The notes under the pieces were generated by a model, which was not told where the DNA came from, made no database searches, and was given only the letters and a program-made list of their open reading frames with translations. 35,491 bases of DNA from an uncultured Bacilli bacterium. GTDB lineage: Bacteria; Bacillota_I; Bacilli_A; RF39; UBA660. The stretch lies in assembly GCA_944351315.1 (NCBI GenBank), contig CALVPL010000034.1, forward strand, positions 1 through 35,491. The letters run 5' to 3'. Below, piece by piece: positions 1 through 19,950 of the stretch (position 1 is its first letter; every line of letters begins with the position of its first letter). The position numbers and the translations under genes are program-made.

Positions 1-969
1 CGTTATTATGCGATGGATCGTGATAAAAATTTTGATCGTACGAAAAAGTATTATGATTTGCTGGTTAAAGGTGAGGGATTATTTGCTTCTAGTATTCCTT
101 TAATGATTCAAAAGTGCTATGGAAATAATATTACAGATGAATTTTTACCTCCAATTAAAACGAAAGATTTTCAAGCAATTCGTGATGGAGATGCTGTTTT
201 GTGGATGAATTACCGAACCGATCGTGCTAAACAAATTGTTAGTTCTTTTGTTCAAAATTCTTTTGAAGACTTTGCGATAGTTCCTATGCCTAATTTAAGA
301 GTTTATTCTTTTTTGCCAATTGATTCTAAGATTAAAACTCGTAATTTTTTGGAAAGACCTAAAATTACAAATCCATTAGGAGTTTATTTTGCAGATCTAG
401 GATTAACACAAGCTAGAATTGCCGAGACAGAAAAATATGCTCATGTTACTTATTTTTTTGATGCTGAAAGTAATGCTTCTTTAAGTGGGTGTCAGAAATT
501 TTTGATTCCTTCTCCTAAGGTAGCTACTTATGATTTAAAACCGGAGATGAGTGCAATTGAAGTTACCAAGAAATGTGTAGCTTGTCTGGAAAAAGATTAT
601 GATTTTATTTTAGTGAATTATGCCAATCCGGATATGGTTGGTCATACAGGAAATTTAGATGCAACGGTTAAAGCCTGTGTAACGGTTGATTTATGTTTGA
701 AGATGCTTTATGAAAAAGCAGAAGAAAATTTTTATACTTTAATTGTTTTAGCAGATCATGGTAATGCCGATCAAATGCTTGATGCTCAAGGTCATCCTGT
801 AACTACTCATACTACTAGCTTAGTTCCTTTTCTTATTACAGATGAAAAAGTTGTTTTAAAAGAAAAAGGTGATTTGACGAATGTTGCTCCAACTATTTTA
901 GAGTATATGGATATTACTGTCCCAAAAGAAATGAGAGAATCTGGAAGTTTATTTGTGCATAAAAATTAG
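1..969 (+). CDS. gpmI: 2,3-bisphosphoglycerate-independent phosphoglycerate mutase, C-terminal part (5' end upstream of window)
   Basis: The frame is open from nt 1. The translation carries iPGM-type motifs ('NYANPDMVGHTGN', 'LADHGNADQM'). Stop TAG at 967-969. Confidence 0.85.
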   Translation, partial: RYYAMDRDKNFDRTKKYYDLLVKGEGLFASSIPLMIQKCYGNNITDEFLPPIKTKDFQAIRDGDAVLWMNYRTDRAKQIVSSFVQNSFEDFAIVPMPNLRVYSFLPIDSKIKTRNFLERPKITNPLGVYFADLGLTQARIAETEKYAHVTYFFDAESNASLSGCQKFLIPSPKVATYDLKPEMSAIEVTKKCVACLEKDYDFILVNYANPDMVGHTGNLDATVKACVTVDLCLKMLYEKAEENFYTLIVLADHGNADQMLDAQGHPVTTHTTSLVPFLITDEKVVLKEKGDLTNVAPTILEYMDITVPKEMRESGSLFVHKN

Positions 970-990
970 GAAATATTTTTTCCTTTTTTT
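968..990 (+). terminator. Rho-independent terminator after gpmI
   Basis: Stem AGGAAA (968-973) / TTTCCT (979-984) followed by a T-run (985-990). Confidence 0.6.
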
Positions 991-1034
991 CTTGTCTATT
1001 TTTTGTCATAAATCTTCTTTTTTATTTAGAGCTT

Positions 1035-1043
1035 TGTTATAAT
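1035..1043 (+). promoter_or_regulatory. Extended -10 promoter element (TGtTATAAT) for the pcrA operon
   Basis: TGTTATAAT lies 19 nt upstream of ATG 1062. The -35 region is weak and T-rich. Confidence 0.4.
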
Positions 1044-1061
1044 GTTTATGAGGTAATAGAC

Positions 1062-3146
1062 ATGATTGATTTAACAAGTTTGAATGATTTACAAAAAGAA
1101 GCTGTTTTGCATAAAGATGGTCCTTGTTTAGTTATTGCGGGAGCAGGAAGTGGTAAAACAAAAGTTTTAACGACGCGAATTGCAAAACTAATAGAAAGTG
1201 GTATTGATTCTTATCATATTTTAGCGATTACTTTTACGAATAAAGCTGCTAAAGAAATGAAAGAAAGATTGGAAAAAATTGTTTCAGAAAATGATGCATT
1301 TGTCGGAACTTTTCACTCTTTTGGAATGCGAATTATTCGTGAGAATGTTTTAAAGCTTGGCATGGAAAGAAATTTTACTATTTTAGATAGTGATGATGTT
1401 TTAAGTTTAATAAAAAAGATTTTAAAAGAAAAAGGATATGATACTAAAGAAGTATCTCCTTCTTATATTCGGAATCGAATTAGTTTTATTAAGAATGAAA
1501 TGTTAACTAATGCTGAAATTGAGAAATTCTTTCAAAGCGATATGGAGAAAATTGCTTATGAGGTATATTTGGAGTACAATTTGAAGTTAAAACAAAATAA
1601 CTCAGTAGATTTTGATGATTTATTAAGACTTCCTGTATTGCTTTTTCAGGAACATCCTGAGGTACTCGATCATTATCAAGATAAATTTCAATACATTTTA
1701 ATTGATGAGTATCAAGATACGAATGAAGTGCAATATAAATTGGTGAAATTATTGGCTCGAAAATATCAAAATTTATTTGTTGTAGGCGATCCAGATCAAT
1801 CTATTTATCAGTTTCGAGGAGCAAATTATAAAAACATTTTGAATTTTGAAAGAGATTATCCAAATGCGAAAGTTGTTTCTTTAGAAGATAATTATCGAAG
1901 CACAAAAATGATTTTGGATGCTGCAAATAGTGTTATAAAAAATAATAAAGAACGTAAAGAAAAGAATTTAAGAAGTCATCATGGAGATGGATTAAAAATT
2001 AAATATATGCGAGCTTATGATGAAAAAAATGAAATTTCTTTAGTTATTTCTGAAATTAGAAAATTATTTGAATTAGGATATAAAAATAAGGATATTGCAG
2101 TTTTTTACAGAACAAATGCACAAGCCAGAGTTGTTGAAGAACAATTTTTAAAAGCTAATATTCCTTATAAAGTTGTCGGAAGTTATTATTTTTATGCTCG
2201 TAAGGAAATTAAAGATTTGATTTGTTATTTGCGACTTATTTTAAATGCTCATGATAATGTTTCTTTAGAAAGAGTTATTAATGTTCCTAAAAGAGGAATT
2301 GGTAATTCGAGTATTTCTAAGCTTGTAAGTGAAGCTCAAGAAAGAAATGTGAGTATGTTTGAAGTTTTACATACTCCGAAAGAACTTGAATTTAAACAAT
2401 TGATTTTAGATTTACAAAAATTTAGTGAGTCTTCTTCTTTAACTGAATTAGTAGATGCTGTATTAGAAAAAACAGGAATAAAAGAAGAGCTTTCAAAAGA
2501 TCCTTCTTTAGAAAGTGAGCTTAGATTAGATAACTTAATGGAGTTTCGGAGTATTACTAAAACTTATGAAGATACGACAGGAAGTGTTGATTTAGGAGAT
2601 TTTTTAGAAGAGATTAGTTTAGTTGCGGATATTTCTGAACATAAAAATACGGATGATGTAGTTACTTTAATGACGATGCATAGTGCTAAAGGGCTTGAAT
2701 TTCCAGTTGTTTTTTTAGTCGGAATGGAAGATGGAATTTTTCCTCATCAAAATAGTTTTAATGAGGAAGGTGGAATTGAAGAAGAACGACGTTTATGTTA
2801 TGTCGCGATTACAAGAGCTAAAGAAAGATTATATTTATCCAATGCGAAATCAAGAATGATGTATGGGCAAATTAATCGAAATATTCCAAGTCGGTTTATT
2901 GAAGAGATAGATGGTAATTTAATTGAAAAAGAGTTTTCAGAACCTACAGAAAATATTATTCATAAAGAAGATATGTATACTGAAGAAGATGTTTCTTATC
3001 AAATTGGAGATGTGGTTATGCATACGATTTATGGTCGTGGTGTTGTTGTCGGAGTCGATTCTTCGTTAGTTACGATTGCTTTTAGTAAACAGTATGGAAT
3101 TCGAAAATTGATGAAAAATCATAAAAGTTTAAAGAAAGTGTCGTGA
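1062..3146 (+). CDS. pcrA: ATP-dependent DNA helicase PcrA/UvrD (superfamily 1)
   Basis: Motifs 'AGAGSGKT', 'TFTNKAAKEM', 'DEYQDTN', 'VGDPDQSIYQFRGA', 'TMHSAKGLEFPVVF', 'RRLCYVAITRAK'. SD GAGGT sits 7 nt before the ATG. TGA stop. Confidence 0.95.
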   Translation: MIDLTSLNDLQKEAVLHKDGPCLVIAGAGSGKTKVLTTRIAKLIESGIDSYHILAITFTNKAAKEMKERLEKIVSENDAFVGTFHSFGMRIIRENVLKLGMERNFTILDSDDVLSLIKKILKEKGYDTKEVSPSYIRNRISFIKNEMLTNAEIEKFFQSDMEKIAYEVYLEYNLKLKQNNSVDFDDLLRLPVLLFQEHPEVLDHYQDKFQYILIDEYQDTNEVQYKLVKLLARKYQNLFVVGDPDQSIYQFRGANYKNILNFERDYPNAKVVSLEDNYRSTKMILDAANSVIKNNKERKEKNLRSHHGDGLKIKYMRAYDEKNEISLVISEIRKLFELGYKNKDIAVFYRTNAQARVVEEQFLKANIPYKVVGSYYFYARKEIKDLICYLRLILNAHDNVSLERVINVPKRGIGNSSISKLVSEAQERNVSMFEVLHTPKELEFKQLILDLQKFSESSSLTELVDAVLEKTGIKEELSKDPSLESELRLDNLMEFRSITKTYEDTTGSVDLGDFLEEISLVADISEHKNTDDVVTLMTMHSAKGLEFPVVFLVGMEDGIFPHQNSFNEEGGIEEERRLCYVAITRAKERLYLSNAKSRMMYGQINRNIPSRFIEEIDGNLIEKEFSEPTENIIHKEDMYTEEDVSYQIGDVVMHTIYGRGVVVGVDSSLVTIAFSKQYGIRKLMKNHKSLKKVS

Positions 3147-3150
3147 GTTT

Positions 3151-3510
3151 ATGCAAGAAAATTCTTTTTTAGAAAATGTTTTAACACGAATATATCGTCG
3201 TGGTTCTTCTTATTTAACAGTGGTTCAAAAAGTTGTTCCTACTGGATATATGACTATTCATACTATTTTTGATAATACTTTTAATTTTACTTTATATCCT
3301 GCGATTCATGAAGAGTTATCGGATGTTATTTCTTTTTGTTTACGTTTTCAAAAAAGCAAACAACTTTATTGTTCTTTTATAGAAAAAGAAGAAATGGTTG
3401 ATGAAAAACTTCATTATAAAAAATTATGGGAAGCTAAGGGCGAAAGTATTGAGGAAGCTTTGGTTTTATTAGAAGAAAAAATTCAAATGGAGAAAGGTTT
3501 GGGAAGATAA
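3151..3510 (+). CDS. Hypothetical protein, 119 aa
   Basis: ORF starts 4 nt after the pcrA stop, and its stop overlaps the next start (TAATG). No recognisable motif. Confidence 0.65.
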   Translation: MQENSFLENVLTRIYRRGSSYLTVVQKVVPTGYMTIHTIFDNTFNFTLYPAIHEELSDVISFCLRFQKSKQLYCSFIEKEEMVDEKLHYKKLWEAKGESIEEALVLLEEKIQMEKGLGR

Positions 3511-6449: not shown

Positions 6450-7337
6450 ATGAATGGAGAGGCTCAAAAAAATTTACAAATGCTTCAAGATTTTTTTAAA
6501 CAAGATGAAGAAATTAAAAAAATATTGGTAAACATATTGCAAGCAAGAGATTCATTGGTTGGAACATATCAAATGCAAAGATTTTTGCGGTTGCTTGATC
6601 GAGCTAGTGATCAATTTCAAAAAGTTTTTCAGAATTTTCTACCTTTATTAGAACTTTCTTCTGAAGAACATACCAATTTATTTAAAAATTTTGTTTCTTA
6701 TTTTTTTCAAAAATTGCAAGAAGATTTACAGAAGTGTGATTGTACGGAAATGGGTATTTATACGGTGGTTACAAAACGTTTTTCTTCTTTAAAACCAGAA
6801 TTTTTAGATATAGTTTATCAAAATTGTGTTGCCAATAAAGTTGCTTTTGATTTTAAAAAAATTGAAGAGACTTGTACTTCAATTAATGAGCTTTTACATT
6901 TTTACCATGCTTATATTATTAATAAACTAAATTATTCTAAAGTTTTTCCAATTGTGTTTGAAAAAAATAATATTGTACTTTGTGGAAAAGAAACAACTTT
7001 TTCTAAAAATGTTTTTGATAAGTTTCCAGTAGATTTAAAAAGTAGATATGTTCGAATTCTTTCTTATGATGAAAATTTTGTTTATGCTATTGTCCGAGAT
7101 TATGGGCACGCTACTTCTTTAAAGATTAAAAAAGATCATGAACAAGTATATGTGGAATATTTTATTCCAACCGTTACAAATTTTGAAAAAATTCAAGAGT
7201 TACCTGGTCTTAATCGAGTGTCTAAATATGATGATACGGGATGGGCAACGGGATCTTTTAGAGGAAATTTAGAAGATTTAGAAGAGTTTATTCAAAAAAT
7301 TCCTACAGATTTTGATATAAAAAAAGTTTTTAAATGA
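6450..7337 (+). CDS. Hypothetical protein, 295 aa, co-transcribed with ligA
   Basis: Long ORF 6 nt after the ligA stop. No recognisable motif. Confidence 0.7.
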   Translation: MNGEAQKNLQMLQDFFKQDEEIKKILVNILQARDSLVGTYQMQRFLRLLDRASDQFQKVFQNFLPLLELSSEEHTNLFKNFVSYFFQKLQEDLQKCDCTEMGIYTVVTKRFSSLKPEFLDIVYQNCVANKVAFDFKKIEETCTSINELLHFYHAYIINKLNYSKVFPIVFEKNNIVLCGKETTFSKNVFDKFPVDLKSRYVRILSYDENFVYAIVRDYGHATSLKIKKDHEQVYVEYFIPTVTNFEKIQELPGLNRVSKYDDTGWATGSFRGNLEDLEEFIQKIPTDFDIKKVFK

Positions 7338-8188: not shown

Positions 8189-8212
8189 AGTATGTTCTCC
8201 GTTTCTTTTCTT

Positions 8213-8262: not shown

Positions 8263-8291
8263 TTGTAATATTTTGGCTTGTATGATAGAAT
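8263..8291 (+). promoter_or_regulatory. Sigma-A-type promoter for the four-gene unknown operon
   Basis: TTGTAA (8263-8268), 17-nt spacer, TGaTAGAAT (8283-8291). This places the track's TTG start (8273) inside the promoter. Confidence 0.55.
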
Positions 8292-8317
8292 TTAATTATA
8301 ATAAGATTTGGGGTGTT

Positions 8318-9682
8318 ATGGTGAATATATCATTTGAAAATTCATGGAATAAATTTGAAGATTTTATTCATGAATATATGCAAGGATTACAAACTCAAAA
8401 AAGTCTTTTAGAAAAAAGTATAAGAAGTGAAAAGGTTATAAGTGCTGCGAGTCAAGATAGAACTATCGCTTCTGTTTTAAAAGCTAAAGAAGTTTTACTT
8501 TCTTTAGATGCTACTTTAAAAGTAGACATTGATATGCTTGAATTTTTTGAAAGCAATCAAGCAAGTTTGCTTTCTCAAGTGCAAGGTATTTTAAATAAAA
8601 TTTTTACATCTCAGGTTTTTCAGAATTCTGCAAAAAATTCGTTGGAAAATCAAAAAAAATTACAAGTTTTTGAAGCTAATATTTTGGAATGTCAAAAAAT
8701 TTTAGAGGGCAACGAATATTCCTTTCCTTATTTAACTAGCTTATTGGAAGTAAGTTCTTTAACAGAAAAAGAGAAACTGCAAATTTTAAGTAAAGTGGTT
8801 TATGAGTCTAGTCCTAAAATAGAAATTGAACAATCTTTACCGTTAAAGAAAACAGAAGTATCTAAGACTTTTTCGGTCGAAAGTATGTTGCCAATTTATC
8901 AAGAATTGTTAAATAAATCGAATTTGCTTTCTCATAAATATTATTATTTGTTAGAAGGAAAGAATAGCAGTCAATTAGAATATTTAAAAGCTGTGGTTTC
9001 TATTGTTCAAGATCATGAAGTTTCGCCTGAAGATTTTCAATACATTGAAGAGAAAATGTGTGTTTGTCTTTTAGAAATTTTTGATACTAAAAAAATACTT
9101 GAAGAATTTATGAAAACAATTCCAGATTTTAAAAATGTTTCTGAACAAACAAAAGATAGTTTGGAGTATTATTTGGAGTGTTTAAAAGATGCTATTTCAC
9201 AAATTGATGCTTTAGCTCCTAGATTAAAGACTCAAGACATTGCTTCTCAACCGGCTGATAATCTTATTTTCTTAATGAATGATCATAATTTACCAATGTT
9301 TCATTTAGAAGATTTTTCGGCAGAAGAAAAGAATCGAATTGCCAATTTACTTCGAGGATTATTACAAGGCAAGAAAGATTATGAACGAGGAGTAAAGCAT
9401 AGTAAACTTTTATCTGAACAAAAATTAGATTTTGATGTCTTTCTTAATAAAAATGGTGATATTGCGGTTTCATATGTGCTTTTATCTAATATGAATTTTT
9501 TGATTCTTACATTTGATCGTAAAAAAGATATTTATGATGCATCTTTGTATCTTTTAAAAAAATATCAAGGGAAAATTTCTTCTTTACAATCTGAAAATTT
9601 CTTTTCGTTACTTGGTGAACAAGAACCTTTTAAACAAGAATTGTTTTCACAACTTGGAATTGAAAGAGGGCAGGTATTATGA
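8318..9682 (+). CDS. Hypothetical protein A (454 aa from ATG 8318), helical N-terminal region plus distinct C-terminal module
   Basis: Long ORF. ATG 8318 is preceded by GGGGTG; the upstream TTG 8273 lies within the predicted promoter. No P-loop, transmembrane or catalytic motif seen. Confidence 0.8.
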   Translation: MVNISFENSWNKFEDFIHEYMQGLQTQKSLLEKSIRSEKVISAASQDRTIASVLKAKEVLLSLDATLKVDIDMLEFFESNQASLLSQVQGILNKIFTSQVFQNSAKNSLENQKKLQVFEANILECQKILEGNEYSFPYLTSLLEVSSLTEKEKLQILSKVVYESSPKIEIEQSLPLKKTEVSKTFSVESMLPIYQELLNKSNLLSHKYYYLLEGKNSSQLEYLKAVVSIVQDHEVSPEDFQYIEEKMCVCLLEIFDTKKILEEFMKTIPDFKNVSEQTKDSLEYYLECLKDAISQIDALAPRLKTQDIASQPADNLIFLMNDHNLPMFHLEDFSAEEKNRIANLLRGLLQGKKDYERGVKHSKLLSEQKLDFDVFLNKNGDIAVSYVLLSNMNFLILTFDRKKDIYDASLYLLKKYQGKISSLQSENFFSLLGEQEPFKQELFSQLGIERGQVL

Positions 9683-9882
9683 GGAGTAAAATGAATGATT
9701 TTTTTCAAAAAATAAAAAAGGATTGCTTTGAATTAATTGCCTTAAAGAAAGTAGATATTGGTGAGTTATCTTTTTTGTTAGGTATAAGTGAAAAGAAATT
9801 TTATCAAAATTTTACACATTGTATTGAAGACTTAACCTTTTATTTAAAAACCTATGACTTACTAGTAGAGTGGGGTGAATAA
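9679..9882 (+). CDS. Small HTH-like protein B (67 aa; alternative start ATG 9691)
   Basis: ATGA overlap with the upstream stop. The segment 'IGELSFLLGISEKKFYQNF' resembles a TetR/Xre-type helix-turn-helix. Confidence 0.65.
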   Translation: MRSKMNDFFQKIKKDCFELIALKKVDIGELSFLLGISEKKFYQNFTHCIEDLTFYLKTYDLLVEWGE

Positions 9883-11749
9883 GTTGGAAGAAGTTTTACG
9901 TTATCATATAGAATATTTGTATAAAAAATTAAATGCTTTTAGACTTATAGAGGATGAGACAAAACTAAAAGAAATGAAAAAAGAGACGAGGGTATTTACT
10001 GAACTTTTAGATGATTTAGAGAAGAATATTGAAAATATAAGTTATTTAGATATTGATTCTGTGTTATCAAAACTTTATTCTTCTCAGAAATTAGATAAAG
10101 TTTTAGAAGAACTTCGACTTGTCAAAATTGTTTTGGAAGCAAAAAATCAAAAACATTTTCCTATAGATCTTTCAGAAGAACAAAATATTTTTTTACAAGA
10201 CTTATTATTTAGAATTCATGATCAAGAAAGACAACATCTTGAACAAATTCCGTTTATTTCTCAAGAAATAGAAAAGAAAAAAGAAGAAAAAGAAGCTATT
10301 GAGGATAAAATTATTAATTTATCTATAATTTTAGAGAAAATTTTAGATCCAGATAATTTAGAATTTTTAACTCAAGAGGAATTTGTAGATTTTTATGATT
10401 GTATTTTAAATAAAGAAATTCCTTATGAAAAAAGAAAGGAAGCACTAATTTCTTGGAAAAATTATAATGATAAACGAAGTCTTTTAGATAAGAAAGTTAT
10501 CGAAAGAATAGATATGGCAAGTATAAGAGAGTGTTTTAGAGAATATGGTCTTTTAGATTCTGTTGAAAAATATTTACAAAAATATGAAAAGGAAATTCTT
10601 TATCATGGAGATATTTCTAATATTCGAGGAATTCTTTCTTATTTGCAAGAAGAAGATTTAGTTCATCATAAACCTAATTTGTTGTCTTCCTTTACACCTT
10701 TAAATTTGTTAACTATGTGTATTTATGGAACAGTTTCTTCAGTAAAAGAACGTTATGAACAACTTTCTGAAAATAAAGATTTGCTTGATATTTATTTTTC
10801 AACACCTAGTGTTTGGATTCGTAATATAAGTGGAAGAAGAAAACATACCTCTGGAATAAAAAGAGAAACACATCCTGATAAATCTAGTTTTACTTTAATG
10901 ACGATGGCTCATTTAATTAGTTTTGAGGAAATGTTCCAAAATGAAAAATTATTACAAGAATTGGGATTTTCTGTTTCCTTAAAAGAAGGTAAAGGAATCG
11001 CGGCTATCAAAATGCCAACTTATCGTCTTCATGAAAATATTGATATATTAACTAAATATGATATTTTGAATCTTGATAACACGGAAAATTTTCCCGTTTC
11101 TACTTTATCTTTTTCGGACTTAGTTACTAAGTGTGATTGGGCTATTGAGGTGGGATGGTTAAATCCTCTTGAAAAACAATTTGGAAATTATATTCAAAAT
11201 TATCCTAGTAAATTACAAGTGAAAATTGATTTTTTTGCTGTTCTTTATAAACTAAAAAATGAAATGCCTGCTGATGAGTATTATCGAACTGTTTTTTCAG
11301 AAAATGGAAAATTAAATAAAGCTTTCTATCAAAATGGTTATCTACAAGTTTCACAAGGAAAGAGTTTTGCCGATTTTTTAGGAAATACGTTTGTAGATTT
11401 TGCTCATTGTAGTTATCTTCCTAATTATTCAAGTTTTGAGCAAATTATAGTTCAAAATTTTCAACTGGATTATGATTTATCTATTTTTAATGATTCATTA
11501 ATAAAGAAATTAGAGACTTATCATCATGTGAACGATCATGATTTTCAGTATGTTTTTGGAAATGTGGCTGTTTCTCGTTTTAAAGTGTTACGAATTTATT
11601 CGATTTTAAAAAAACAAGAAAATATTGATTTAGAAGAAGCTTTATTATTTGCAATAACTTATAATTCTTTATTGAGTGAACAGAGTTTGCAAGTGATTTT
11701 AGGTCAACTTGGAATGAAAAAAGGAGAAGTAACTTATGGAATATCTTAA
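9875..11749 (+). CDS. Hypothetical protein C (624 aa; alternative start TTG 9884)
   Basis: Long ORF overlapping the stop of B by 8 nt. The N-terminal ~200 aa is rich in Leu/Glu/Lys. No recognisable enzymatic motif. Confidence 0.8.
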   Translation: MNKLEEVLRYHIEYLYKKLNAFRLIEDETKLKEMKKETRVFTELLDDLEKNIENISYLDIDSVLSKLYSSQKLDKVLEELRLVKIVLEAKNQKHFPIDLSEEQNIFLQDLLFRIHDQERQHLEQIPFISQEIEKKKEEKEAIEDKIINLSIILEKILDPDNLEFLTQEEFVDFYDCILNKEIPYEKRKEALISWKNYNDKRSLLDKKVIERIDMASIRECFREYGLLDSVEKYLQKYEKEILYHGDISNIRGILSYLQEEDLVHHKPNLLSSFTPLNLLTMCIYGTVSSVKERYEQLSENKDLLDIYFSTPSVWIRNISGRRKHTSGIKRETHPDKSSFTLMTMAHLISFEEMFQNEKLLQELGFSVSLKEGKGIAAIKMPTYRLHENIDILTKYDILNLDNTENFPVSTLSFSDLVTKCDWAIEVGWLNPLEKQFGNYIQNYPSKLQVKIDFFAVLYKLKNEMPADEYYRTVFSENGKLNKAFYQNGYLQVSQGKSFADFLGNTFVDFAHCSYLPNYSSFEQIIVQNFQLDYDLSIFNDSLIKKLETYHHVNDHDFQYVFGNVAVSRFKVLRIYSILKKQENIDLEEALLFAITYNSLLSEQSLQVILGQLGMKKGEVTYGIS

Positions 11750-12017
11750 AAACTTTTTGACATTAGAGGAGTATGAGCAATTTGTTTCCCAACTTACGGA
11801 TGAAGATGTTAGTTTATTTTTAACTCATGAAGAAAATGTTCTTTTAGTCTTAAAGTATTTTAAGAGCTTAGAATTGAATCTATTTGATCTTTTACTTTAT
11901 AAATATCCCATTGTTTTTGATCGTTTAGATTCAATTAAAGAAAAAATAGAAAATCATCCAAATATAATTCCTTTATTAAAAGAAGATGTTTCTAATTTTG
12001 ATTTAATCGGGTTATAA
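11736..12017 (+). CDS. Hypothetical protein D (93 aa)
   Basis: ATG preceded by AAGGAG (9-nt spacing). Overlaps the end of C by 14 nt. Confidence 0.65.
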   Translation: MEYLKNFLTLEEYEQFVSQLTDEDVSLFLTHEENVLLVLKYFKSLELNLFDLLLYKYPIVFDRLDSIKEKIENHPNIIPLLKEDVSNFDLIGL

Positions 12018-12022
12018 AAAAA

Positions 12023-12051
12023 TTGACAATTTCTAAAAGAAATAGTATAGT
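12023..12051 (+). promoter_or_regulatory. Sigma-A consensus-like promoter for the lysS leader
   Basis: TTGACA (12023-12028), 17-nt spacer, TATAGT (12046-12051). Confidence 0.7.
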
Positions 12052-12060
12052 AATTCCAAG

Positions 12061-12273
12061 AAATGCGTTGAAAACTAGAGTAGTTATAGACATTTTTTTA
12101 AAGAGAGATGAGGGTTGGTGGAACTCATTAAAAAATCTATAATGAATAAAAGAGTGGGAGCATGATCGTAATTCTGCGTTAAAGAAAGAAAGAGCATGGC
12201 AACATGAATTAAGGTGGTACCGCGGATTTAACAGTTATTCGTCCTTAGATGGATGGATAACTGTTTTATATTT
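12061..12273 (+). promoter_or_regulatory. T-box leader riboswitch (lysine specifier) with intrinsic terminator
   Basis: Stem I has a K-turn base (AUGC-GUU-GA... / ...GA-GCAU) and the specifier-loop 5' element AGAGUA (12077-12082). An AGAGAG bulge and a GGUGGAA distal loop are present (12102-12124). The specifier-loop 3' side reads GAAUAAAAG, with AAA at about 12148-12151. The canonical T-box sequence AAUUAAGGUGGUACCGCG lies at 12207-12224. A 15-bp terminator stem (12230-12265) is followed by a U-rich tract. Confidence 0.88.
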
Positions 12274-12290: not shown

Positions 12291-12542
12291 ATGGAAAAAC
12301 CAATTTGTAAAGTTGCATTGGGTATTAAAGTTTTTGCGATTTGTTTTTTGGCGGTTGGAATAGTTCTTCTTGTGCTTTTAGGAATTTTAGGCCTTGTTTC
12401 AATCATCAATGTATTCATTGGAATTATTGTAGATATTGCATCTTTTTTGTTATTATATGGCTATGCACATATTATTCAAGGGGTACAAGATCTTGTTTAT
12501 TTAAAAGAATTGGAGTATGAAGAAGAGGAGGAAGAAAAATGA
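12291..12542 (+). CDS. Small membrane protein (83 aa, two hydrophobic helices, poly-Glu tail)
   Basis: SD AGAGGT precedes the ATG. There are two long hydrophobic stretches. The stop overlaps the lysS start (ATGA). The terminal Glu codons GAGGAGG (12525-12531) double as the lysS SD. Confidence 0.6.
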   Translation: MEKPICKVALGIKVFAICFLAVGIVLLVLLGILGLVSIINVFIGIIVDIASFLLLYGYAHIIQGVQDLVYLKELEYEEEEEEK

Positions 12543-16142: not shown

Positions 16143-18287
16143 ATGTTTCATAATTATGGTTTTGAAGTTGCAAATATTTTAAAAAAAGCAGAAAATATTC
16201 GATATGAATGTAAACATCCTTATGTCGGCACAGAACATATGTTACTTGCTTTACTTTTAGAAGAGAATGAAACTACTCATGTGTTTGAGAGTTTTGGAGT
16301 GAATTATTCTTCTTTTAAATCCTTGCTACTCGATATTGTCGGTCAGGCTTCTTCTTATCAAGAATTGAATTTATATACTCCTATGTTAAAAAAAGTTTTG
16401 GAAATTGCTAATATGGAAGCTATGGATTTAAATCATGGAGTAGTAAAACCTGTTTATTTAGCTTTAGCTTTACTGGAAGAAGGAGAAGGCATCGCGGTTC
16501 GTTTGCTTTTACAAATGGATGTTTCTTTAGATGAATTGTACCTTTCTTTAAAACAACTTATTATACCTAAAAGTAAAAAGAATAAAAATCTAGAAATTTT
16601 TAAAATTGGTGTTTCTATGAATCAAAATATCGGAAGAGAGAAAGTCATTGTTGGCCGAGAAAAAGAAATTGATTTTATGATTGAAACTTTACTTAGAAAA
16701 CAAAAAAATAATCCTTTACTTATTGGAAAAGCTGGTGTTGGAAAAACGGCATTAGTTGAAGAATTAGCTAGACGAATTAAATATCATGAAGTTCCTAAAG
16801 AATTAGAGGGAATGGAAATTGTTCTTTTAGAAATGGGTGCTTTGGTTGCAGGTACAAAATATCGTGGGGAATTTGAAGAACGTCTTAATAAAATTATTAA
16901 AGAAGTGCTTCATGAAAAAAACATCATTTTATTTATTGATGAGATTCATTCAATGGTGAATGCTGGTGGGGCTGAAGGAGCGATTGCCGCTTCAGATATT
17001 TTGAAACCTTATTTGGCTCGTGGAGAAATTAAAATCATTGGAGCAACAACCTTGGCAGAATATCACGAGTTTTTAGAAAGAGATAAAGCATTAGATCGAC
17101 GTTTTGAAAAAATTATGATTGAAGAACCTTCTTTAGAAATGATGCAAACTATTTTAGATGCGGTGGTTCCTTCATTTGAAAAATATTATGATATTTTCAT
17201 TAGTGAAGAAAATAAAAAAGATTTTTTATATTTTAGTAATTCTTATTTGTTTACTAAAAGCAATCCCGATAAAACGATTGATTTAATTGATTCTGTATGT
17301 GCACGAAAGAAAGTTAAAGAAGCTCGTTTATATTCTTCTAAGAATAGGGATACTTTAGAAAAAATTCAACGAAAAAAAGAACGAAGTTTAAAAAAAGGAG
17401 ATTTTGCTACTGCTTTAAAAGAAGCCATGGATGAAGAAAAATTTAAAAAGGAGTTAACAGAATCTGCCAATTTTACTCGATTAACTTTAACTCACGAAGA
17501 TATTTTGGAAATGATTGAAACTAAAACAAATTTTTGGCTCCAAAAAGATGAGCGAGTTTTATTAGAAAAATTGAAAGACAATTTACTTAGTAATCTTTTG
17601 GGACAAGATGAAGTTTTAGTAAAGCTTGTGGATTCTTTAAATTTGAATTGTCAAAAAAATATGAGCTTTTTATTTGTTGGAGGAAGTGGAGTTGGTAAAA
17701 CTGAAACGGTTAAGATTGTCAGTGATACGTTAAAGACTTATTTTATTCGAATTGATATGAGTGAGTATAATACGATTGAAAGTGTTCATAAGTTGATTGG
17801 TTCGCCATCTTATTATGCGGGTTATAAAGAACCTTATGTTTTTCAAAAAGTAAAGGAACATCCTTATGCTACAATTTTATTTGATGAAATTGAAAAGGCT
17901 CATCCTAAAGTATTAAATTTATTGTTACAAATTTTAGATGAATCTTTTATTACCGATTCTTTTGGGGAAGTTATTCGTTTTGATCACACTTTTATCTTTT
18001 TAACGAGTAATGTTATTGGCCGAGATCCAATTGGTTTTGAAAATTCTAAGAAAGCATCTTTTGATGGCTTTTTCTCAAAAGAATTTGTCGGACGTATTGA
18101 TGAAGTGTTGCGATTTAAACCAATTACTAAGGAAGTAGCTTTAGAATACATTCATAAAAATTTAAAAAATAAAGATGTTTTAGAAGAACAACTCTTGCAT
18201 GATGCGGAAGTTGAAAAATATGGATTACGGAATTTAAAAAATTTGATTCAAAAATATAATAAAAAAGTCTCTTTATTAAATAATTAG
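16143..18287 (+). CDS. ClpC-like AAA+ unfoldase (compact, 714 aa)
   Basis: Double Clp_N repeat ('YVGTEHMLLALLLEE', 'VKPVYLALALLEE'). D1 Walker A 'GKAGVGKTA' and Walker B 'ILFIDEIH'. UVR-like linker. D2 Walker A 'GGSGVGKTE' and Walker B 'ILFDEIEKAH'. 'PIGF' ClpP-docking-like loop. Confidence 0.85.
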   Translation: MFHNYGFEVANILKKAENIRYECKHPYVGTEHMLLALLLEENETTHVFESFGVNYSSFKSLLLDIVGQASSYQELNLYTPMLKKVLEIANMEAMDLNHGVVKPVYLALALLEEGEGIAVRLLLQMDVSLDELYLSLKQLIIPKSKKNKNLEIFKIGVSMNQNIGREKVIVGREKEIDFMIETLLRKQKNNPLLIGKAGVGKTALVEELARRIKYHEVPKELEGMEIVLLEMGALVAGTKYRGEFEERLNKIIKEVLHEKNIILFIDEIHSMVNAGGAEGAIAASDILKPYLARGEIKIIGATTLAEYHEFLERDKALDRRFEKIMIEEPSLEMMQTILDAVVPSFEKYYDIFISEENKKDFLYFSNSYLFTKSNPDKTIDLIDSVCARKKVKEARLYSSKNRDTLEKIQRKKERSLKKGDFATALKEAMDEEKFKKELTESANFTRLTLTHEDILEMIETKTNFWLQKDERVLLEKLKDNLLSNLLGQDEVLVKLVDSLNLNCQKNMSFLFVGGSGVGKTETVKIVSDTLKTYFIRIDMSEYNTIESVHKLIGSPSYYAGYKEPYVFQKVKEHPYATILFDEIEKAHPKVLNLLLQILDESFITDSFGEVIRFDHTFIFLTSNVIGRDPIGFENSKKASFDGFFSKEFVGRIDEVLRFKPITKEVALEYIHKNLKNKDVLEEQLLHDAEVEKYGLRNLKNLIQKYNKKVSLLNN

Positions 18288-18322
18288 AGGCTTTTTTGTT
18301 CATATTAGTAGTAGGTGATGGT

Positions 18323-19066
18323 ATGTCAAAGTCTTACAGTGTCATTAATTTTGGGTTGATAAGTATTCCAGTAGAGTATTCTTCCGCGGTGATTAACAAC
18401 GATATTTCTTTTCATCAACTCCATAAAAAGTGTTTAGAGCGAATTAAATACCAAAAATATTGTCCACATTGTCATAAAGTTTTAAAAGAAAGTGAAATTG
18501 TTAAAGGAATAGTTCATGAGGATGAAGAATTGGTTGTTTTTGAGAAAAAAGAATTAGATGCTTTAAAACCTGAAAATGATGGGGATATTGAGATTGTTTC
18601 ATTTGTTCCTTTAAAAGAAATTGATCCTAAATATATGCAGAAAAATTATTTTTTAATCCCAGCTAAGAAAGGTAAAGCTTACTATTTATTATTAGAGGCT
18701 TTAAAAAAAATGAAATTAGTTGGACTATGTAAAATGATTTTTCATAATAAATTTTATTATGCTATTTTAAGAAGTACAGAGGATTCTTTTTTACTGACAA
18801 CACTTTTTTTTGAAGAGGAAATGCAAGAGGTTCCAAGTTTGAAAATTCCAAAACTTACGAGTAAAGAATTGGAATTAGCTACTTTACTCGTTAAAAAGAT
18901 GCAAGGTCATTTTGAACCCGAAAACTATCACGATGAATATCAAGAAACTGTTTTAAAAGCTATTGATTTAAAAGCCAAGGGAAAAGGGATTCGTAAATCT
19001 AAAAAGAAAACTACTAAGGAACTTTCTAGCTTAATGCAAGCTTTAGAAAAAAGTTTAAAAGCATGA
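18323..19066 (+). CDS. ku: Ku DNA end-binding protein (NHEJ)
   Basis: 'INFGLISIPVEYSSAV', 'FHQLHKKC..RIKYQKYCPHC', and a basic C-terminal tail. ATG 18323 follows AGGTGA. Confidence 0.85.
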   Translation: MSKSYSVINFGLISIPVEYSSAVINNDISFHQLHKKCLERIKYQKYCPHCHKVLKESEIVKGIVHEDEELVVFEKKELDALKPENDGDIEIVSFVPLKEIDPKYMQKNYFLIPAKKGKAYYLLLEALKKMKLVGLCKMIFHNKFYYAILRSTEDSFLLTTLFFEEEMQEVPSLKIPKLTSKELELATLLVKKMQGHFEPENYHDEYQETVLKAIDLKAKGKGIRKSKKKTTKELSSLMQALEKSLKA

Positions 19067-19950
19067 GATTGTTTTTACAATCTTTTAAACCAATGCTTTT
19101 ATCTGAAAAAAAAGAACCTTTTGATTCTAAAAAATATTTTTATGAATTAAAATTTGATGGAATGCGTGCTTTACTTTTTGTTAGTCCTCATTCTTTTAAA
19201 ATTCTTAATCGTCATGAACAAGATGTTACTTATAAATTTCCTGAATTAAAAGAAATTCAAAAAAATGTAATGTCAACTGTTATTTTTGATGGAGAAATTG
19301 TGTGTTTTGATCAAGAAAAAACTAGTTTTGCTTTTTTACAAAAACGTTTTTCTTTAAAAAAAACCTTAAGTATTCAAAAAGCTCTTTTACATTATCCTGT
19401 TTCTTATATTTGTTTCGATATTTTATATGAGAATAAATCTTTAATCGATTTACCTTTAAGTGAACGCAAGAAAATTTTAGCAAAATATCCAAATACTTCT
19501 TATTTTGCAAAATCTCCTGTTTTTTCGGAAGGGAAAAAGTTGTTTTTGCAAGTGAAAAAAATGGGACTTGAAGGAATTGTTGCTAAAAGAAAAGACAGTT
19601 TGTATGAAATAAATTCTCGAACAAGTTCGTGGATAAAAATTAAAAATATTCAACGAGAAGAATTTTTAATTGGGGGATATAAAATAGAAAAACAAAATGT
19701 TTCATTGTATTTAGGAGAAAGACAAGAGAAAAAGATTTATTTTGTTGGTAAGGTTTCTGTTTCGAAAGAAAAGTTTTTAAAAATGAATATTAAAGATTTA
19801 AAAAAAGAAAAATCACCTTTTTGGAATTTTTCTTCTAAAGAAGTTTTGTATGTAAAACCTGTGATTTTTTGTTATGTAGAATTTTTAGAGAAAAGTAAAA
19901 CTGGAAAATTAAGACATCCCGTTTTTCGAGGCTTAGTCAATTTTGACTAA
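19063..19950 (+). CDS. ligD: ATP-dependent DNA ligase, LigD ligase domain only
   Basis: Motif I 'ELKFDGMRA', 'FDGEIV', 'CFDILY', 'EGIVAKRKDSLY', 'WIKIK'. ATGA overlap with ku. At 295 aa there is no room for polymerase or phosphoesterase domains. Confidence 0.85.
   Translation: MRLFLQSFKPMLLSEKKEPFDSKKYFYELKFDGMRALLFVSPHSFKILNRHEQDVTYKFPELKEIQKNVMSTVIFDGEIVCFDQEKTSFAFLQKRFSLKKTLSIQKALLHYPVSYICFDILYENKSLIDLPLSERKKILAKYPNTSYFAKSPVFSEGKKLFLQVKKMGLEGIVAKRKDSLYEINSRTSSWIKIKNIQREEFLIGGYKIEKQNVSLYLGERQEKKIYFVGKVSVSKEKFLKMNIKDLKKEKSPFWNFSSKEVLYVKPVIFCYVEFLEKSKTGKLRHPVFRGLVNFD

Follow-up and report, generated by a model that had tools for sequence, protein, structure and literature searches.

What kind of system is encoded by four adjacent genes that lie between the housekeeping genes trmB and lysS in an uncultured Bacilli bacterium (GTDB lineage Bacteria; Bacillota_I; Bacilli_A; RF39; UBA660)? 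The genes, here termed A to D, have been found with their promoter at positions 8263 to 12017 of a 35,491-nucleotide stretch of about 29% GC (contig CALVPL010000034.1, assembly GCA_944351315.1, forward strand), referred to below as the window. An initial annotation had proposed an undescribed system, for example a nucleic-acid-directed regulatory or defence module. The analysis reported here indicates that, on the available evidence, no known family or system can host the four proteins. With a probability of roughly 0.4, it would represent an accessory, lineage-specific hetero-oligomeric complex without detectable enzyme motifs, built from paralogous modules.

The four genes and their expression signals

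The four same-strand open reading frames (ORFs) of 454, 67, 624 and 93 amino acids (aa) reported by the initial annotation are present, and their products span isoelectric points (pI) from 4.4 to 5.8.

8318-9682, plus strand: gene A, 454 aa, pI 5.1 (acidic); helical N-terminus, acidic middle and alpha/beta-looking C-terminal domain
9679-9882, plus strand: gene B, 67 aa, pI 5.8; small helix-turn-helix (HTH)-like protein
9884-11749 (or from 9875), plus strand: gene C, 621 aa from TTG 9884 or 624 aa from GTG 9875; pI 5.3, nearly all-helical
11736-12017, plus strand: gene D, 93 aa, pI 4.4, very acidic

The stop of A and the start of B share an ATGA (9679-9682), and the start of D lies inside C with a 14-nt overlap (11736-11749). 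B and C overlap only if C starts at GTG 9875, which gives the longest ORF (9875-11749, 624 aa); TTG 9884 lies 1 nt past the stop of B and is favoured as the probable start, because of the N-termini of homologs (MEEVI...) and the spacing to a GGGGTG Shine-Dalgarno sequence. The view that every junction overlaps therefore stands for A/B and C/D and is doubtful for B/C, yet tight translational coupling is retained with either start, the two genes abutting or overlapping.

8263-8291, plus strand: operon promoter, TTGTAA, 17 nt, extended -10 TG-a-TAGAAT; 9/12 matches, TG present
12023-12051, plus strand: lysS promoter, TTGACA, 17 nt, TATAGT; 11/12 matches; right edge of the cassette and of a variable slot

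The promoter assigned to the cassette is present in the sequence, in an AT-rich stretch where promoter-like matches are not enriched (26 observed vs 28.8 expected). Comparison of 14 orthologous loci, drawn from all synteny groups, located a -10 element 25-35 nt 5' of the first gene in every one (14/14), usually in the extended form TGnTAnAAT. This conserved position supports a promoter of vegetative sigma-A type and not of sporulation-sigma type. No terminator was found between the stop of D and the lysS promoter, which starts 5 nt later. Both flanks are housekeeping, as had been noted, with trmB on the minus strand to the left and the lysS T-box leader (112 bits) to the right, and the wider neighbourhood is origin-proximal and rich in core genes (pcrA, ligA, trmB, lysS, clpC and the S10 operon). 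Such surroundings would suit an essential complex of housekeeping or sporulation (replication, division and spore morphogenesis are examples) that has diverged beyond recognition by sequence and fold searches. This alternative is considered quite improbable, and the vegetative type of the promoter is one point against it.

Searches against described families and structures

None of the four proteins has a match in Pfam, NCBIfam, PADLOC or PHROGs, and none was obtained in PADLOC-DB v2.0 at E<=1. Sequence and profile searches of the PDB, performed with single proteins and with alignments, were empty or returned noise, with no match for A or for the profile of B. Inspection for motifs and hydrophobicity showed no P-loop and no hydrophobic (transmembrane) segment in any of the four, in agreement with the earlier description, and HExxH is also absent.

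For C, a word-index search retrieved only four relatives, while the same kind of search with a 110-sequence profile gave close relatives only, apparently swamped by low-complexity words. An exhaustive hidden Markov model (HMM) search with the four-sequence profile yielded 250 representatives at E<=1e-3 and 115 at <=1e-10, most of them full-length (560-700 aa). C is the founder of a family of about 250 clusters of ~600-aa proteins. When 78 C homologs were scanned one by one against Pfam, NCBIfam and PADLOC, scattered single matches and no common family were detected, and individual scans of 7 homologs of A, 8 of B and 14 of D had the same outcome. Profile matches to a known housekeeping complex, which the initial annotation had named as evidence against a new system, were not obtained in NCBIfam or Pfam for the 78 C homologs; at the level of fold, C was compared with the PDB and BFVD, again without a match to such a complex. 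These results weigh against the housekeeping or sporulation alternative.

An AlphaFold2 model of C built from a four-sequence alignment was poor (predicted local distance difference test, pLDDT, of 62), and it has been superseded by a run with 110 homologs, with a mean pLDDT of 93.7 and a predicted template modelling (pTM) score of 0.88. C is predicted to adopt a compact, confidently modelled single fold, comprising an N-terminal bundle with a 57-residue helix, a helical middle, and a C-terminal helix, beta-hairpin and three helices. Foldseek searches with this model gave no match at E<=0.001 in the PDB (best E 0.37) or in BFVD (best E 0.04), and the weak matches to TAL effectors, dynein and tape-measure proteins were dismissed as generic long-helix noise. 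Since neither profile searches with 78-110 homologs nor the high-confidence model of C led to a described family, the statement that no protein of the cassette can be placed in a known family is borne out.

Within C, conservation is highest in the C-terminal domain.

10052-10549, plus strand: N-terminal module of long helices in C (residues 60-225, counted from 9875), paralogous to A and A-like proteins
11495-11710, plus strand: C residues 541-612, most conserved domain, consisting of a helix, a beta-hairpin and three helices
11519-11542, plus strand: 'YHHVNDHD' His/Asp cluster in C, columns variable in the 110-sequence alignment

The C-terminal domain bears the motif Y559...I-S567-R-x-K570-V-L-R573, situated on the hairpin and helix. 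Four residues, E425 (upstream of this domain), Y559, S567 and K570, are invariant in the 110 sequences; R568 (88%) and R573 (85%) are highly conserved, as are D421, Y439 and Q103 (80-89%). The 'YHHVNDHD' cluster had been suggested as a candidate metal site, a role that is not supported, as the cluster lacks conservation among the 110 homologs.

A resemblance to mTERF proteins (PF02536) has also been considered. By eye, a helical unit similar to the mTERF repeat, 'EE-V--IL-YL---GI--I-DLL---P-IF', can be made out in D and in two segments of C; one D homolog gives a sub-threshold mTERF match (E 0.022); and C is all-helical and partly repetitive. Nonetheless, no match above threshold occurs in the window proteins, the 78 C homologs or the 14 D homologs, and Foldseek of the C model against the PDB retrieves no mTERF entry. 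Characterised mTERFs are basic nucleic-acid binders of organelles, whereas the cassette proteins are acidic. An mTERF identity for C and D is thus unsupported by profile scans or by Foldseek against the PDB.

Modules common to the cassette proteins and the C/D junction

An indication that the cassette is assembled from related parts comes from profile-profile alignments of A and C.

8657-8827, plus strand: A residues 114-170, helical module common to C residues 138-203
9248-9577, plus strand: A residues ~311-420, C-terminal domain with the pattern strand-helix-strand-strand-strand-helix (by eye)
10601-10771, plus strand: C residues 243-299, candidate first D-like unit (hhalign probability 44%, E 2.4e-4; earlier 21%; weak)
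10910-11035, plus strand: C residues 346-387, possible second D-like unit (hhalign alternative match, E 0.0064, probability 6%; suggestive only)

Using hhalign, A 114-170 was aligned with C 138-203 at a probability of 72% (E 3.4e-5), and the shorter A-like proteins of the spoIIP synteny group were aligned with C 60-225 at 94% (E 1e-7). On these alignments, the upstream partner, whether A or A-like, is a paralog of the N-terminal module of C, for which the model predicts helices at 70-91, 101-157 and 184-202. D in turn weakly resembles a unit of ~50 residues that appears to occur twice in the middle of C.

A D-type gene is located directly 3' of C in every full locus fetched, and both ends of its product are conserved (M(D/E)YLK... 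and ...NFDLIGL). The tail of C, 'YG(L/I)S*', and the start of D, 'M(D/E)YLK', are the same 14 nt read in two frames. This dual coding (11736-11749) is kept in the window clade and in locus L010 (fetched loci are designated by an L and a number), having been seen in L001, L003, L004 and L010, while in more distant homologs the junction is a 4-, 13- or 23-nt overlap or a short gap. A role of 'YG(L/I)S' as a functional motif of C is not required where the 14-nt overlap occurs (window clade, L010), because the DNA there also encodes the start of D.

B matches PRK00118 at E 0.004, and of its 8 homologs one matches HTH_19 and one HTH_10, each at E 0.04. All of these are sub-threshold, so the description of the 67-aa protein as HTH-like has sub-threshold support only. 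B is restricted to the window clade, the frr synteny group and L017, being absent in L014, L015, L016, L020 and L022, and the C-terminal domain of A is missing in the A-like proteins of the spoIIP group (L020, L022).

A small gene after each large gene, with overlapping or abutting junctions, brings to mind two toxin-antidote pairs, A+B and C+D. These might be a domesticated RelE/HigB toxin paired with an antitoxin of the XRE type, or else polymorphic toxins resembling LXG proteins, together with their immunity proteins. By eye, the C-terminal pattern of A, ATGA-coupled to a HTH-like protein of ~65 aa, recalls HigB/HigA. Here, by contrast, A has 454 aa with a large helical N-terminal part, so that the pair does not consist of two small genes; an HMM of 11 A C-termini scored hand-typed RelE, HigB, YoeB, YafQ and ParE sequences at <=3.4 bits, the same as shuffled controls; and the individually scanned homologs have no RelE, Gp49, HigB or LXG match in Pfam. 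A RelE/HigB assignment for the C-terminus of A was rejected at the sequence level on this test. The HTH of B is sub-threshold, parts of the family lack the A-B pair, and searches of plasmids and phages retrieved no relatives. As for the LXG toxin and immunity loci of Firmicutes, the cassette likewise has proteins of 450-620 aa with long N-terminal helices in A and C, each followed by a gene for a small acidic protein, and D shares a very acidic composition with many immunity proteins. It differs from them in that the C-terminal domain is the most conserved part of C and is not polymorphic, no type VII secretion genes lie nearby in the fetched loci, and each fetched locus has one cassette in a syntenic position within its group. 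A toxin-antidote nature for the cassette is accordingly regarded as highly improbable.

Distribution and genomic contexts

The conserved core of the cassette comprises an A-like gene, C and D. Co-occurrence of the four genes, which had been put forward as a check, holds for these three, which are constant, and fails for B, which is confined to some lineages. An intact A-B-C-D cassette has been listed for L001/L007, L002, L003/L008, L004, L005 and L006, in which C is 44-92% identical; L001/L007 is in this list and is also the locus where gene A is truncated by a transposon. In L009 the copy is partial and ends at the contig end. Intact A-B-C-D cassettes are also found in L010/L011, L017, L018 and L019, where C is only 27-30% identical, and several synteny groups maintain the order A-(B)-C-D even where identity has dropped to 20-30%. 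The GC content of all fetched loci with a C gene is 20-31%, and matches to the C family show a low-GC amino-acid composition. Searches of IMG/VR, INPHARED phages and PLSDB plasmids revealed no relatives.

At least five genomic contexts have been recognised: between trmB and lysS (window, L003/L008), 3' of a Yip1/zinc-ribbon gene (L004, L005, L009), 5' of rpsF-ssb-rpsR (L001/L007), 3' of frr (L010, L011, L018, L019), and 3' of rpsT-gpr-spoIIP-yqxA (L013, L014, L020, L022). L015, L016 and L017 represent further neighbourhoods. Sporulation genes (gpr, spoIIP, a SpoIVB peptidase gene, yabG and yabP) occur beside the cassette or in close relatives. The fetched loci contain no defence genes or integrases near the cassette; the neighbours are housekeeping or sporulation genes, and the sole mobile element is the transposon of L001. 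As separate observations from the spoIIP-linked group, a 446-aa protein without a Pfam match or detectable similarity to A is encoded 3' of D in L013 (10059-11399), and a DNA_alkylation-repair-like protein of ~243 aa is encoded 3' of D in L014, with a putative equivalent in L023 assigned by size and position only; either might belong to the cassette.

The slot between trmB and lysS was compared among relatives located via LysS. It is hypervariable and holds unrelated cargo in sister genomes: a 292-aa HELGH (HExxH) protein on the minus strand in L027 (7814-8692; LysS 91% identical), an 816-aa pilin-like protein (N_methyl, Big_13) in L029 (6099-8549; LysS 94%), and 1.25 kb of non-coding DNA in L028 (LysS 85%), while the gene order in L026 (LysS 83%) is different and resembles that of B. 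subtilis. When five related genomes are compared, their homology sets in again precisely with the -35 element of the lysS promoter.

A Mu/Tn552-like transposon interrupts gene A near residue 125 in L001/L007 (GCA_944363605.1; region 1-3190, considered together with L002). It codes for an AAA_22 ATPase, a DUF6431 protein and a rve/Mu-transposase C-terminal protein. An assembly made independently breaks off at the same position of A, and B, C and D are intact. Lack of conservation or disruption of the ORFs had been foreseen as a sign against a genuine system; the genes are conserved across loci, and A is disrupted in one lineage.

The deep synteny beside frr or gpr-spoIIP-yqxA, together with the core neighbourhood of the window, is what an essential housekeeping or sporulation complex would be expected to display. 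That explanation is opposed by the slots without a cassette in close relatives and by the disruption of A.

Selection and divergence

Relative to L006, which is 92-95% identical (C 92%), the ratios of nonsynonymous to synonymous substitution rates (dN/dS) of genes A, B, C and D are 0.14, 0.12, 0.31 and 0.16, respectively. Because of these values of 0.12-0.31, the four ORFs are real genes under purifying selection. Exact copies of B and D are present on dozens of public contigs.

The cassette diverges far more than its surroundings. The window and L008 share synteny from pcrA to lysS, and their flanking proteins are 84% (PcrA), 90% (LigA), 83% (TrmB) and 89% (LysS) identical, against 36% for A, 49-53% for B, 44% for C and 47% for D; the DNA identity of ~0.8 falls to ~0.55 at 8200 and recovers at 12000. 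The frr group presents the same picture, with Frr 83-87% identical vs 25-28% for A and 28-36% for C. The dN of the cassette is 5-8 times that of the flanks, a further point against the housekeeping or sporulation alternative, and its GC content at third codon positions (GC3) equals that of the flanks, a likeness in composition that would agree with a housekeeping origin.

Steady, fast vertical divergence appears sufficient to account for these values, because the observed dN is approximated by the product of the cassette's dN/dS and the saturated dS of the flanks. Allelic replacement by recombination is for the same reason not required for the sharp drop in identity. Localised diversifying selection was rejected, as substitutions are evenly spread between close variants without a hypervariable patch.

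Rapid divergence of this extent is also met in conflict genes, and a new anti-phage or anti-mobile-element system has to be weighed, in which the sensor or effector would be C (with A), regulation or inhibition would fall to D and B, and the whole would be kept as cargo of a core-genome hotspot. The promoter of its own, presumed to be constitutive, the tight coupling, the large-small-large-small pattern of genes, the extreme divergence from LigA, LysS and Frr, the slot that in sisters holds a HExxH protein, a pilin-like protein or nothing, the natural disruption of A by a transposon and the at least five genomic contexts are all in keeping with such a system. Set against this are the lack of a PADLOC family for the four proteins or common to the 78 C homologs; of a recognisable nuclease, NTPase, TIR, sirtuin, protease or membrane effector; of defence genes or integrases in the neighbourhoods, the one transposon excepted; and of phage, plasmid or viral-contig relatives. 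The fetched C-bearing loci are moreover all of low GC and not spread across phyla, and purifying selection has acted with evenly spread substitutions. The cassette resembles the cargo of core-genome hotspots (defence islands) in its conserved core flanks, in content that differs among close relatives and in its sharp boundaries; it differs in that the alternative cargo (a HExxH protein and a pilin-like surface protein) is not recognisably defensive, and integrases and PADLOC matches are absent. A conflict system is therefore held to be unlikely, though it deserves serious consideration.

The nucleic-acid-directed regulatory or defence module of the initial annotation did not gain ground from these results, since PADLOC matches, neighbouring defence or mobile genes, relatives on phages or plasmids and a conserved enzyme motif are all lacking. 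The acidic pI of all four proteins (5.1, 5.8, 5.3 and 4.4) argues against classical nucleic-acid binders. There is no specific support for the cassette as a defence system; its fast divergence, variable slot, local dispensability and disrupted A are of the kind that conflict genes often display.

Proposed nature of the cassette

The reading preferred here, at the probability of about 0.4 given above, is that of an accessory hetero-oligomeric complex. Four soluble, acidic, mostly helical proteins would be co-produced, most likely as one hetero-oligomer, in a cassette that may have been assembled from duplicated pieces of one architecture. A and C could pair via their paralogous N-terminal modules, and D may dock on C. 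B would be a minimal HTH-like add-on, which might bind the C-terminal domain of A, the operon's own DNA, or both. The invariant E425, Y559, S567 and K570 of C, with R568 and R573, may form a ligand- or partner-binding site. The cassette appears to be limited to low-GC Bacilli carrying sporulation genes, in a pattern compatible with vertical inheritance and occasional relocation and loss. It would be expressed from a vegetative-type promoter, and it evolves fast under purifying selection. On this reading its function would be a dispensable cell-biological one and not defence.

Several observations weigh against the proposed complex, which is a prediction from the genes. The likeness of D to C is weak (probability 21-44%), and the putative HTH of B is sub-threshold. 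The invariant polar residues of C could mark an unrecognised catalytic site, at odds with a complex that is not an enzyme. Genomes whose LysS is 91-94% identical lack the cassette between trmB and lysS, and L008 (89%) has it there. It is therefore either mobile or not needed at this locus, and for a structural complex with a purely cellular role this would be unusual. In one lineage a transposon lies within A. Divergence 5-8 times faster than that of the flanks is also typical of conflict genes.

A wider formulation is doubtful but can be entertained: the cassette might be a new multi-protein machine, with a fold lacking a solved or viral-predicted counterpart, that serves either as a defence or conflict system without a known enzymatic module or as a new cell-biological apparatus of uncultured spore-forming low-GC Bacilli, E425, Y559, S567 and K570 then representing an undescribed activity or recognition.

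Other observations in the window and its relatives

The interval from the lysS T-box terminator (12230-12265) to lysS contains an 83-aa ORF (12291-12542), whose stop overlaps the ATG of lysS. Two helices of the predicted product are strongly hydrophobic and its tail is poly-Glu (EYEEEEEEK), and the 250-bp insert that carries the ORF is absent from all four aligned relatives (L008, L027, L028, L029). A small membrane protein would thus come under the control of the T-box here, along with lysS.

Two further slots of the pcrA-ligA-trmB backbone (3151-3510 and 6450-7337) hold fast-evolving or unrelated ORFs. Between pcrA and a nucleoside triphosphate (NTP)-transferase gene, the window has orf119 (40% identity to L008), and unrelated ORFs of 150 aa and 237 aa are found in L027 and L028. 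In the ligA|trmB slot the window has orf295, which is 36-48% identical to an ORF of 229 aa in L008; L027 has nothing there, and L029 has four small ORFs (94, 139, 71 and 229 aa), one of them an opposite-strand HTH. Apart from that HTH and a weak match on the 229-aa ORF of L029, the ORFs of both slots have no Pfam match.

At 16143-19950, just 5' of the S10 operon, a gene for a ClpC-like double-AAA ATPase is followed directly by those for Ku and an ATP-dependent DNA ligase, a non-homologous end-joining pair. The arrangement is kept in L027 and L028.

Significance

If the proposed reading is true, the cassette adds new protein families, and probably a new complex, to a poorly studied branch of uncultured Bacilli. 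Its C family of ~250 clusters would be recurrent in many metagenomes and would have a confidently predicted architecture without a counterpart in the PDB, BFVD, Pfam, NCBIfam, PADLOC or PHROGs. Novel families are common in uncultured taxa, and this cassette is notable for its unmatched confident fold, its modular duplication and its unusual evolution. The fast divergence within a conserved backbone, the variable slot and the duplicated-looking parts together provide hypotheses that can be tested by heterologous expression.

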